From NCBI GenBank assembly GCA_964414715.1, contig CAYPXN010000040.1:5988-69987 (forward strand): a stretch of DNA of 64,000 bases, in the 5' to 3' direction. The notes under the pieces are model-generated. The model saw only the letters and a program-made list of their open reading frames with translations, had not been told where the DNA came from and did no database searches. This DNA comes from an uncultured Pseudomonadota bacterium (GTDB lineage Bacteria > UBA10199 > JADFYH01). Numbering within the stretch: position 1 is the first letter of the stretch; each line of letters starts with the position of its first letter. The translations under genes were made by a program, and so were the position numbers. Of the stretch, positions 13,507-15,720 are shown piece by piece.

Positions 13507-14070
13507 CTATTCGCGTGGACAGCAGGCTAGAAAAATAGTTATGCTAACATTTGTTGTTGCATTTGGAGTAAGCACACTACAATACCTACCTCTAATAATA
13601 GCCTCCGAATCAGGAATGCCCCCAAAACACAATGCACCAGGAACAATAAAACTTTTTATTGCTGAACTACATGGACCCTCTAGAAACCAAGTAGGAATTG
13701 CACCATTGGTAGAAATACTACAACCTCCACTTACAGCCACTTGACCAGAGCCGCAATCTAATTCACCTGTAACACCTTGCCTGGCAGTGAAACTTCTGTG
13801 CACTTCCCTACAGCCACTCCAAAGAATCCCAGGCCCCCTCGGCCCAGCAGGCCCTTGCAAACCCATCGGACCTATTGGTCCCTGAGGCCCCTGAATTCCT
13901 TGGGGCCCACGCTCTCCCGCTCTCCCTGGAGGGCCTTGAGGACCCGGATCTCCCGTGAAGCCTCTAGGGCCTTCACTTCCATTTTCTCCTCGCGGACCTC
14001 TTTCTCCAGTACAGCTTTCTAATAACAAGCCTGCCAAAGCAACGGCTCCAATAGCAACAATGGGCAGCAT
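13507..14070 (-). CDS. Collagen-like triple-helix repeat protein (about 25 G-X-Y triplets) with an N-terminal hydrophobic anchor or signal and a Cys-rich C-terminal globular domain.
   Basis: Translation [70 protein letters not shown] 7 nt upstream of the second ATG ([10 protein letters not shown]...). The ORF track starts 11 codons earlier. Confidence 0.75.
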
Positions 14071-14191
14071 AAATACCTCCTTGTTTGGTATCCATGTGCC
14101 CACCTAAAGTTTTACTTTCTTAAATTTTAACTCGATAAAATACAAGAAAAGTTGTTAATATTTCTCAAGCGAACACAACACGGAGCGTTAT

Positions 14192-14671
14192 ATGAAAAAG
14201 ACCTTATTCCTGATTCTTTTATTTTGTAGTCTTCCTCTTTTCGCCGCTGACAAAACGCCCGAAACCCCATCTTACAATTATTCTCCCGAACAAATTCTTT
14301 CGGAATCAAAACTCATCGCAAAAATTAAATGGGAAACTTATCCCTCCCCCCACATTATTTCCGTGCTAGTTCAAAAAGTATTTTGGGGCAGGGGAGACTG
14401 GAAAAAGGGGATTGCCGGCTGGATTGAAGGCAAGGACTATGCTTTAGATATTGCTCCGAACGGCTGGGAAAAAACTTGGGAAGGAATGGATCCCAAATAT
14501 GTACCCTTAGATAAAGAAGCCATTCTTTTTATCGATGCTTCCGGAAAACTAGTGGCCATGGGAGAAATCAAGGGAGACAAAATCATGCTCACTTGTTCTC
14601 TCACAGGGCAGAAATGCCTCATAGGCCCAAAAAATGAAATCGCAACATCTTCACTCAAGGAAATTAAATAA
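14192..14671 (+). CDS. Secreted hypothetical protein with a signal peptide.
   Basis: MKKTLFLILLFCSLPLFA signal sequence. ORF of 159 aa. No family recognised. Confidence 0.55.
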   Translation: MKKTLFLILLFCSLPLFAADKTPETPSYNYSPEQILSESKLIAKIKWETYPSPHIISVLVQKVFWGRGDWKKGIAGWIEGKDYALDIAPNGWEKTWEGMDPKYVPLDKEAILFIDASGKLVAMGEIKGDKIMLTCSLTGQKCLIGPKNEIATSSLKEIK

Positions 14672-14680
14672 ACGCTATCA

Positions 14681-14772
14681 AAGGGTTTGCTTCGTCGTCC
14701 CACAAAGTGGGACTCCTCGCAATGACTCCAGCCAGGGTCATCGCGAACCCTGCGAAGCAGGGTGTGGCGATC
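14681..14772. repeat. Palindrome-bearing repeat element, copy 1 (REP/MITE-like), 3' of the GIY-YIG gene.
   Basis: Contains hairpins GTCCCACaaaGTGGGAC, CTCGCAATGAC-n9-GTCATCGCGA and ACCCTGCgaaGCAGGGT. Shares the GGGwTTGCTTCG...CTCGCAATGAC...GTCATCGCGAnCCTG backbone with copy 2. Confidence 0.55.
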
Positions 14773-14775
14773 CCG

Positions 14776-15060
14776 TTAGTATAAGTGAGAACTTAGATCT
14801 TTCCATTCATGGTTAAGAACTTCTATTAAAGCAACTTTCTTTTTTCTGGAACCTGCCTTTATTTGTTTTTCTCTTTGGATTGCATTTTCAGGATCATCGA
14901 ATACTTCGCAGTAAACAAGTTTGTTTAAATTATACTTCTTCACAAATCCAATACTCTCTTTTGACAGATGTTCATTCAATCTGCGTGATAAGTTATTCGT
15001 AACCCCAGTATAGAGAACAGTATTTCTAGAATTTGTGAGAATATAAACGAAATATGGCAT
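14776..15060 (-). CDS. Small GIY-YIG nuclease superfamily protein (COG2827/UPF0213-like).
   Basis: Translation YFVYILTNSRNTVLYTGVTNNLSRRLNEH carries the GIY...YIG motif. Total length 94 aa. Confidence 0.8.
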   Translation of the reverse strand: MPYFVYILTNSRNTVLYTGVTNNLSRRLNEHLSKESIGFVKKYNLNKLVYCEVFDDPENAIQREKQIKAGSRKKKVALIEVLNHEWKDLSSHLY

Positions 15061-15070
15061 ATTGTTTCAA

Positions 15071-15163
15071 CGGGATTGCTTCGCTCCGCTCGCAATGACT
15101 TCAAGTGTTGTCATCGCGAGCCTGGAAAACGCAGAGATACCACAGATAACACAGATAACACAG
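15071..15163. repeat. Palindrome-bearing repeat element, copy 2, 5' of the GIY-YIG gene, plus an adjacent 9-mer tandem repeat (CACAGATAA x2.5).
   Basis: GGGATTGCTTCG...CTCGCAATGACttcaagtgttGTCATCGCGAG, in the same orientation as copy 1. Tandem 9-mer at 15141-15163. Confidence 0.5.
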
Positions 15164-15252
15164 GGATTTCTTGCTCTCCCTAACTTCCGCATGGCAGCCC
15201 GGAAGGCAGCTATGCTAGGGTTCAATCCGTTCAGGATGACAAAGCTCTGTAA

Positions 15253-15720
15253 TTAAATAGAATCCAACACTTCTTTCCAATGTCCGGCGACTTTTACTTT
15301 TGGAAAAATCTTTTTAATTTTTCCATTCGCATCAATCACAAAGGTGGAGCGGACAATGCCCATGAATTTTTTACCGTATAAACTCTTTTGCTGATAAACC
15401 CCGTAAGCCTCGGAAACTTTTTTATCGGTATCTGCCAAAAGAATGTGTTGCAGTTTGTATTTTTCCGCAAACTTTTGATGTCGAAGTTCATCGTCCAGAC
15501 TTACCCCGATGATAACAGCATTCTTTTTTTCGAATTGTTTCAGGTTTGCACTAAAATCACAGGCCTCTGTTGTACAGCCGGGAGTCATGTCTTTGGGGTA
15601 AAAATAAAGGACTACATTCTTGCCCTTAAAATCCGACGAGCTGACAGCTTTACCAGTTTGATCTTTGAGTTTAAAAGCAGGGGCCTTGTCACCTGATTCT
15701 AAAATGATTTCCTTGCTCAT
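15253..15720 (-). CDS. bcp: Peroxiredoxin Bcp/PrxQ (thiol peroxidase).
   Basis: FYPKDMTPGCTTEA active-site motif. Length 155 aa. Confidence 0.85.
   Translation of the reverse strand: MSKEIILESGDKAPAFKLKDQTGKAVSSSDFKGKNVVLYFYPKDMTPGCTTEACDFSANLKQFEKKNAVIIGVSLDDELRHQKFAEKYKLQHILLADTDKKVSEAYGVYQQKSLYGKKFMGIVRSTFVIDANGKIKKIFPKVKVAGHWKEVLDSI

Follow-up and report, generated by a model that had tools for sequence, protein, structure and literature searches.

A putative ssnA-type GIY-YIG nuclease gene and its hairpin repeats form a discrete insertion in an uncultured Pseudomonadota bacterium

What kind of system is formed by a 94-codon GIY-YIG nuclease gene lying between two copies of a palindromic repeat, and is such an arrangement able to move? 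This question is raised by a locus on contig CAYPXN010000040.1 (assembly GCA_964414715.1) of an uncultured Pseudomonadota bacterium, of which a 64-kb stretch, hereafter the window, was analysed along with retrieved comparison contigs and loci (designated by L-numbers, e.g., L063). A sequence-only reading of the window had regarded the gene and its repeats as a possible small mobile or selfish unit, in which sequences resembling repetitive extragenic palindromes (REPs) and miniature inverted-repeat transposable elements (MITEs) travel with a homing-type nuclease. The protein comparisons, the layout of the repeats and the conservation of both across phyla indicate that the locus is very probably an ssnA-type gene accompanied by its cognate repeats, the Ssn-related motifs (SRMs). 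Systems of this kind were already described in 2025, and the locus needs no new category.

The nuclease and its relation to SsnA

The gene (14776-15060, minus strand) is predicted to encode a single-domain GIY-YIG nuclease of 94 aa. The Pfam GIY-YIG profile (PF01541) matched the protein with E=3e-18 over residues 3-74, with no other domain detected, and none of the NCBIfam models scored above its own cut-off. The database relatives number ~8,000, the best 120 of which exhibit 62-74% identity, and the closest relative in the PDB is UPF0213 BH0048 (1ZG2), at only E=5e-6. A comparison with a 94-aa open reading frame (ORF) of Neisseria gonorrhoeae (L083:1489-1773, from a chromosome filed among plasmids) revealed 44% identity over 85 residues with no gaps (E=2e-22). 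This ORF carries canonical NTS repeats on its flanks, and from its length, these flanks and its residues we infer that it probably represents the SsnA orthologue.

The SsnA of N. meningitidis is a 94-aa single-domain GIY-YIG protein (cd10448) which binds the hairpin repeat NTS (CGTCATTCCCGCGMAVGCGGGAATCYRG) in single-stranded DNA (ssDNA) only and on one strand only, cutting a few nucleotides upstream of the motif, and it does not bind the RNA form. In this system, cleavage depends on the GTC that precedes the stem, binding depends most strongly on the C that follows it, and mutants of Y6, Y17 or E64 have lost cutting altogether (Chenal et al., Nat Commun 2025, PMC11893778). These three residues occur in the window protein with the same numbering and are invariant in 25 homologues, and all 28 invariant columns of the corresponding alignment (A1) are kept. 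It is the combination of the 94-aa length, the Y6/Y17/E64 set, the 44% identity to an NTS-flanked orthologue and the same layout around an Aeromonas homologue, in which classical SRMs are arranged as unit, gene and inverted unit, that led us to file the locus as an Ssn–SRM pair.

The homing-type label of the sequence-only reading did not survive these comparisons. A free-standing homing endonuclease of the I-TevI type, with a double-stranded DNA (dsDNA) site in gene-less alleles as its target, would account for the GIY-YIG catalytic domain and for a weak match to the group I intron endonuclease model TIGR01453, which was sub-threshold at 22.9 bits vs a cut-off of 56. However, the protein has only 94 aa in total, with no DNA-binding domain and no intron or intein, and the insertion sites differ from locus to locus, falling at the ends or starts of unrelated genes. 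Moreover, the closest characterised relatives, namely the Ssn members of Neisseria and Wolbachia, cut only ssDNA and likewise have neither a DNA-binding domain nor an intron or intein context (PMC11893778). We therefore consider a homing endonuclease extremely improbable here, and return to the Ssn assignment, for which the repeats provide the second line of comparison.

Hairpin units, their covariation and their association with the gene

Two patterns taken from the repeat, CTCGCAATGAC-N-GTCATCGCGA and TTGCTTCG-N-CGCAATGAC, have exactly two matches each in the 64 kb, at 14687-14746 and 15076-15119 and in the same orientation, and neither occurred in 100 dinucleotide-preserving shuffles, which agrees with the earlier description of two same-orientation palindromic copies around the ORF. 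Each copy resolves into two units on opposite strands, placed head-to-head with a 10-nt spacer, and ssn lies between units U4 and U1. Along the gene strand, the immediate flanks of ssn read as unit, gene and inverted unit. The general unit consists of (Y)GTC, a five-nucleotide arm (X5), GA, a variable inner stem-loop bounded by G and C, GAA, the reverse complement of X5 and a terminal C(YC). In copy 1, U3 (14683-14726, minus strand) reads GTC-ATTGC-GA, the inner stem GGAGTCCCAC/GTGGGACGAC, and GAA-GCAAA-CCC, with one mismatch in the outer stem and an inner hairpin of 7 bp, and U4 (14737-14772, plus strand) reads GTC-ATCGC-GA, the inner segment ACCCTG CGAAG CAGGGT, and GTG-GCGAT-CCC. The spacer between them (14727-14736, 10 nt) is 5' of both GTC tags. 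This copy also has the additional hairpin GTCCCAC-aaa-GTGGGAC noticed in the first reading, and the DNA fold of U4 reaches -13.3 kcal/mol (z=-4.2 vs shuffles).

In copy 2, U1 (15074-15099, minus strand; stem arm ATTGC) has the minimal 26-nt form GTCATTGCGAGCGGAGCGAAGCAATC and is located upstream of ssn, its end being 13 nt from the start codon. It is followed by a second 10-nt spacer (15100-15109) and by U2 (15110-15139, plus strand; stem arm ATCGC), in which the 5' box GTCATCGCGAG is intact and the 3' half is degenerate. The degenerate end overlaps a tandem repeat of the 9-nt word AGATAACAC (15135-15163, plus strand; 3.2 copies, TRF score 51), the same tandem repeat that had been reported after copy 2. 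The CAATGAC/GTCATCG asymmetry recorded at that stage is explained by the arms, since the minus-strand units have ATTGC and the plus-strand units ATCGC. A further 5' box, TTTGTCATCCTGAAC (15229-15243, minus strand), was found w​ithout a convincing 3' partner. The region 15160-15250 was considered as a fifth full unit and rejected because its fold was no better than that of shuffles, and only a remnant 5' box is claimed there. No further unit above chance and no second Ssn-like gene were found in the window.

The association of gene and repeat was examined in homologous loci from other bacteria. We fetched 80 genomic loci encoding relatives with 57-68% identity from more than 15 phyla, including Desulfobacterota, Chloroflexota, Nitrospirota, Atribacterota, Bacteroidota, Cyanobacteria, Planctomycetota, Bacillota and Elusimicrobiota, as well as several candidate-phyla-radiation groups, Proteobacteria, Acidobacteriota and others; the association counts use 81 loci. 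Searching with the general unit pattern revealed a unit at most 250 nt from the gene in 73 of the 81, usually in the layout unit, gene, inverted unit, and the association of the repeat with the nuclease gene is thus a general one. The DNA words GTCATTGCGAG and CGAAGCAATC recur upstream of the homologous genes, and GATTGCTTCG and CTCGCAATGAC just past their stop codons. Almost throughout, there is one Ssn-like gene per locus, a second and weaker match being present in one locus.

Several other repeat arrangements were observed in these comparisons. Upstream of or near ssn, direct tandem arrays comprise seven unit copies with a 34-nt period in L070 (1460-1690) and four copies with a period of ~40 nt in L006 (159-300), constituting a third arrangement besides the head-to-head and tail-to-tail pairs. 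Classical Neisseria-type SRMs (e.g., CGTCATTCCCGCGAAAGCGGGAATCCAG) are located at L058 4572-4639, L079 1834-1861 and L073 5243-5273, where ssn itself has ATTGC-type units on its flanks, so that a single genome can harbour two repeat classes. In Sinorhizobium and Rhizobium replicons (L330 and L333), the homologues (39-49% identity) have another repeat on their flanks, with the tag CGTCAC (CGTCACAGGRATCCAGC...); homologue and repeat constitute another cognate pair unmatched by the published SRM pattern.

The outer stem varies among these loci in a manner expected of a base-paired structure. The dominant arm pair is ATTGC/GCAAT, and other arms (ATCGC, ATCCT, ATTCT, ATCCC, ATTAC, ATTCC, ATGCT, ACCCT, ACTGC and ATAGC) are each accompanied by the matching complement. 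In a test on 275 non-canonical YGTC-N5-GAR boxes, for which complementarity was not a selection criterion, 62 had their own complement plus Y within 80 nt, against 10 on average and at most 19 in 200 permutations with swapped arms. This covariation fits a hairpin formed from one strand, with the reservation that covariation alone would also agree with a protein whose recognition of two half-sites varies along with them.

Outside the homologous loci, the repeats occur mostly by themselves. Exact-match scans of metagenome and IMG/VR collections, all counts from which refer to the matches listed, placed 2 of 182 motif copies on metagenome contigs, and none of 181 on viral contigs, within 150 nt of an Ssn or Ssn-like ORF, so that ~98% of the copies elsewhere are not adjacent to the gene. 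A predominance of gene-less copies has also been stated for SRMs (PMC11893778). Together with the 73 loci above, this bears out the suggestion that the repeats are REP-like and accompany a small nuclease. Gene-less pairs are predominantly tail-to-tail (TT) rather than head-to-head (HH), with 67 TT vs 22 HH in metagenomes and 40 vs 5 on viral contigs. The units next to the gene have this geometry too, and CGTC REPs have been reported to show the opposite, head-to-head bias. A pyrimidine precedes GTC in ~95% of 91 dimers. The exact ATTGC-type unit was observed on at least 120 contigs classed as viral (L210-L329, IMG/VR), some of which carry five to six copies (L224, L245 and L286), and no Ssn-like ORF was found within 2 kb of any of the 181 viral copies.

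The fraction of copies without a gene also bears on the idea that the repeats act only at the RNA level, as a 5' untranslated region regulator, a terminator or an mRNA stabiliser of the GIY-YIG gene. A transcript of the gene would include both repeats, and copy 1 folds well as RNA (z ~ -5.4). Against this, neither an Rfam match nor a terminator-like T tract was found at the locus, the flanking units are inverted, so that the conserved unpaired GTC, GA and GAA would be read as complements on one side, nearly all copies elsewhere are remote from the gene, and SsnA does not bind RNA, all of which makes an exclusively RNA-level role very unlikely. In the search for known RNA families, Rfam gave no match near the locus at E<=5 and none window-wide at the gathering score. 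Small ribozymes, considered for the hammerhead-like GA...GAA core, were set aside for want of an Rfam match, and integron attC sites in view of the opposite strands of the flanking units and the lack of a GTTRRRY core.

With the locus taken as an Ssn–SRM pair, a most likely mechanism can be proposed. The unit strand, when transiently single-stranded, would fold into a hairpin with an outer stem of 5 bp, the conserved internal loop GA/GAA and an inner stem-loop that varies, leaving the 5' GTC tag and the 3' C unpaired. By homology with the Neisseria and Wolbachia enzymes, the nuclease would bind this hairpin in ssDNA only, on the GTC...C-reading strand only, and hydrolyse that strand a few nucleotides before the GTC, on its 5' side, with dsDNA and RNA uncut. 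In the window, this would place one cut on each strand, within the two 10-nt spacers; the U3/U4 spacer is a predicted cleavage region because it lies 5' of both GTC tags.

Some observations weigh against this assignment. The published SRM pattern, HGTCWYN(0-2)YYVSBRHN(0-5)WNVSBRGN(0-2)RNCYNB, applied literally with zero mismatches allowed, matches none of the window units and the gene-proximal units in 0 of the 81 loci, and the same regular expression does match the Neisseria and Aeromonas repeats. With standard DNA parameters, the minimal unit folds at -2.7 kcal/mol, no better than shuffles; its inner region includes GCGAAGC, a sequence that forms a very stable mini-hairpin in DNA. Three of the four window units have A, G or A immediately ahead of GTC, at a position where Y dominates elsewhere. 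Finally, there are only two repeat dimers in the 64 kb, and therefore no sign of a Neisseria-like genome-wide expansion.

Insertion of the module and the possible role of the nuclease

Empty sites, which the sequence-only reading had proposed to look for in related strains, were found in syntenic relatives. The relatives exhibit the gene order MurJ, S20, NUDIX, hypothetical, bcp, a convergent homologue of the window's 159-aa ORF and a collagen-like gene. In the syntenic relatives L336-L343 and L085, whose bcp is 77-81% identical to that of the window, ssn is absent. The intergenic region between bcp and the 159-aa homologue spans 26 nt in L336-L338 and 35 nt in L339-L341, and in the closest relatives, L342 (645-650), L343 (690-695) and L085 (1070-1078), the stop codons of bcp and a convergent lipoprotein-like gene overlap. 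The L085 empty site (...GAGATTAAATAGCATCCAACAC...) has a single ATTAAATAG common to both convergent genes. In the window, by comparison (alignment A2), ATTAAATAA (14663-14671, plus strand) and ATTAAATAG (15252-15260, plus strand) stand on the two sides of a 580-bp segment (14672-15251) comprising the ssn gene, five unit-like sequences and the short tandem repeat. The left copy also serves as the 3' end of the 159-aa ORF (last codons and stop), and the right copy includes, on the minus strand, the corresponding end of bcp (stop and last codons). As the syntenic relatives have no module and the 9-bp target is duplicated at its borders, the 580-bp segment constitutes a discrete insertion. It entered between convergent genes whose stop region is common to both in the relatives; the insertion parted bcp from its neighbour, and the doubling of the shared bases leaves both neighbouring ORFs intact.

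The neighbours of ssn in the window are housekeeping genes (bcp, NUDIX, S20 and MurJ) in a chromosomal intergenic context, and no compositional anomaly was seen at the insert. For the 159-aa neighbour a single distant homologue was found, on the 1.1-kb contig that carries the empty site. A collagen-like ORF with Gly-X-Y repeats (13507-14103, minus strand, 198 aa) has a local G+C of 54-57% vs ~40% around it, and the relatives have a collagen-domain gene in the same place.

Duplications were also detected at two other loci. In L063, the module (2359-2805) lies between the two copies of a perfect 112-bp duplication of a gene start, with the intact gene after the second copy; within 2247-2917 of this locus, the truncated first copy of the gene start is fused to the module and its frame runs into a repeat unit (...AALSAAGSCKE*). 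In L020, the end of the upstream ORF is duplicated over 72 bp (92% identity) on either side of the module, and the outward-facing GTC tags stand 10 and 11 nt away from the duplication. The distance from the right junction to the GTC of the remnant 5' box in the window is 11 nt, and on the left the insert ends in a unit tail and not in an outward-facing GTC tag. When all 81 loci were scanned for direct repeats on their flanks, the excess was only weak; most long matches were parts of units or arrays (L012, L064, L078 and L080), those in L063 and L020 being genuine. At gene-less dimers, no target duplication directly abutted any of the 91 examined, and none was found at any offset up to 150 nt for 82 dimers.

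A comparison within Planktothrix plasmids (L084, L088 and L089) revealed ssn in one strain and its absence from the same repeat array in two others. In the strain that has it, ssn lies between an MmeI-type restriction–modification gene and the DISARM gene drmA, a defence-island setting unlike the housekeeping context of the window. The two strains without ssn carry the same array of three tail-to-tail dimers, with a small-ORF/PIN pair nearby that we read as a toxin–antitoxin pair. The P. agardhii plasmid NZ_LR882964.1 (L084) also exhibits tandem half-unit "stutters" at the array edges (1189-1259, 1830-1900 and 1960-2053), consisting of TGTCATTCTGAG plus 11 nt repeated two to three times, with a 32-nt version on the other strand. 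Its ssn-specific segment starts directly after a GTCATTCTGAG half-unit that recurs at the far side of the segment.

Together, the discrete insertion, the empty sites and the 9-bp duplication support the mobility of the module that was suggested at the outset, with the nuclease as no more than a candidate for its driver. An autonomous, selfish element resembling an insertion sequence (IS), consisting of ssn and its flanking units and making its insertion breaks with its own nuclease, is a reading that adds to the Ssn identification and does not exclude it. In such an element, the modules of the clade would insert via staggered single-strand breaks with duplications of variable length, their ends lying ~10-11 nt outside the outward GTC, where their own ssDNA nuclease would be expected to cut, and the gene-less TT pairs would be MITE-like, non-autonomous derivatives. 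In addition to the module's absence from syntenic relatives and the three duplications, this reading would accommodate the offsets of 10 and 11 nt in L020 and of 11 nt at the right junction of the window, the geometry shared between the gene flanks and the main class of gene-less dimers, the presence or absence of the gene inside the same Planktothrix array, and the 57-74% protein identity over more than 15 phyla, which suggests horizontal spread.

Several points argue the other way. GIY-YIG enzymes are hydrolytic with no known strand-transfer activity, and the characterised Ssn enzymes cut ssDNA only. Duplications of 9, 72 and 112 bp in three loci are unlike the product of a fixed-stagger transposase; a classical IS or MITE is defined by terminal inverted repeats and a fixed-length target duplication, and in this module the gene is flanked by inverted units. 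The duplications could equally come from Campbell-type recombination or from selection keeping the neighbouring genes intact. Furthermore, target duplications were looked for in vain at 82-91 isolated gene-less dimers, whether abutting or offset, the excess of flanking direct repeats over the 81 loci is weak, and the left end of the window insert is not the expected outward GTC. Balancing these points, we hold the autonomous element to be possible though rather doubtful, and extend the same tentative status to its generalisation to the modules of the whole clade.

A domesticated host function is the other role that the data accommodate. Here, the nuclease would restrict or trim motif-bearing ssDNA that is incoming or transient, as in transformation, conjugation, or phage and plasmid replication, in the manner of SsnA and NTS in N. 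meningitidis, where SsnA lowers transformation by NTS-bearing DNA and its deletion raises it ~5-fold (PMC11893778). The motif on viral contigs that have no Ssn ORF near it, and the Planktothrix gene between the MmeI-type and drmA genes, are compatible with this function. The housekeeping neighbours in the window point away from it, as does the restriction of the motif to the gene itself in the 64 kb, which leaves no visible genomic target set. We rate this function, too, as an uncertain proposition, on a par with the self-mobilising module, the two roles both being compatible with the data.

The significance of the locus extends beyond the window, in three points for which no precedent was found in the accessible literature. 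First, it belongs to a very large, strongly conserved Ssn clade, and surveys with the published SRM pattern will undercount Ssn–repeat pairs because the pattern misses the hairpin architecture of this clade. Second, the nearly identical 21 nt of box sequence, a covarying 5-bp stem and an insertion-tolerant inner loop constitute a natural series of matched enzyme–substrate pairs, useful for the ssDNA-cutting tools proposed for the Ssn family. Third, the likening of NTS-ssnA-NTS to an insertion sequence is a published speculation, which the clean empty sites and target duplications reported here make directly testable; Chenal et al. 2025 (PMC11893778) make no mention of duplications or empty sites. 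If true, the mobile-element reading would supply a mobilising enzyme for the "orphan" CGTC-type REPs and establish a mechanism akin to transposition that relies on a hydrolytic GIY-YIG enzyme acting on ssDNA.

Comparison with known systems

The closest parallels are with the Ssn/SRM systems, with which the locus shares a 94-aa single-domain GIY-YIG protein, oriented hairpins on both gene flanks and a wide distribution over phyla; among Ssn homologues across bacteria, 71% have at least one SRM and 42% have SRMs on both sides (PMC11893778). As in NTS and SRMs, GTC remains unpaired as a tag in the window units, the stem begins with AT and C is the base that follows it, all three being positions reported as critical for cleavage and binding by SsnA. 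The NTS has an 8-bp stem and a 4-nt loop, unlike the units described here, in which the outer stem covaries and is 5 bp long, the internal loop GA/GAA is conserved and the inner stem-loop measures 3 to ~60 nt. Tail-to-tail dimers also predominate in the repeats of this clade, as a further difference, and its protein shares only 44% identity with the Neisseria enzyme, against 57-74% among members of the clade from different phyla. A literature search for the exact DNA words of the units returned only unrelated primers.

The units also resemble the REPs with CGTC or TGTC tags, which Di Nocera et al. (BMC Genomics 2013, PMC3733652) present as short palindromes with an unpaired tag, stems that start with AT, short 3' tails and an organisation in homo- and heterodimers, and which "apparently lack a dedicated transposase". 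The stems of these REPs are described there as 8-9 bp long and the loops as 4-5 nt, with CCA tails and a majority of head-to-head dimers, and compared by that description the present units differ in having five Watson-Crick pairs plus G.A pairs, a CYC tail and a variable inner part. With the REP/BIME (bacterial interspersed mosaic element) or REPIN-RAYT (TnpA-REP) systems, the locus has in common one gene flanked by a hairpin repeat that its product would recognise, and the dispersal of repeats without the gene as singles, as inverted pairs and in clusters. The RAYTs belong to the HUH Y1 enzymes and form covalent intermediates, whereas the only gene of this module encodes a GIY-YIG nuclease that is presumably hydrolytic, and REPs are lineage-specific, whereas 21 nt of box sequence are nearly identical here across phyla.

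The I-TevI family of homing endonucleases shares the catalytic fold, and its DNA-binding domain, dsDNA cut and intron or free-standing phage context have no counterpart here. The IS200/IS605 elements offer, by analogy, subterminal hairpins recognised in ssDNA and a cleavage offset from the hairpin, as may apply to this module. In those elements, both hairpins are on one strand, there is no target duplication and the transposase is of the Y1 type, whereas in the present module the units are inverted and the duplications range from 9 to 112 bp.

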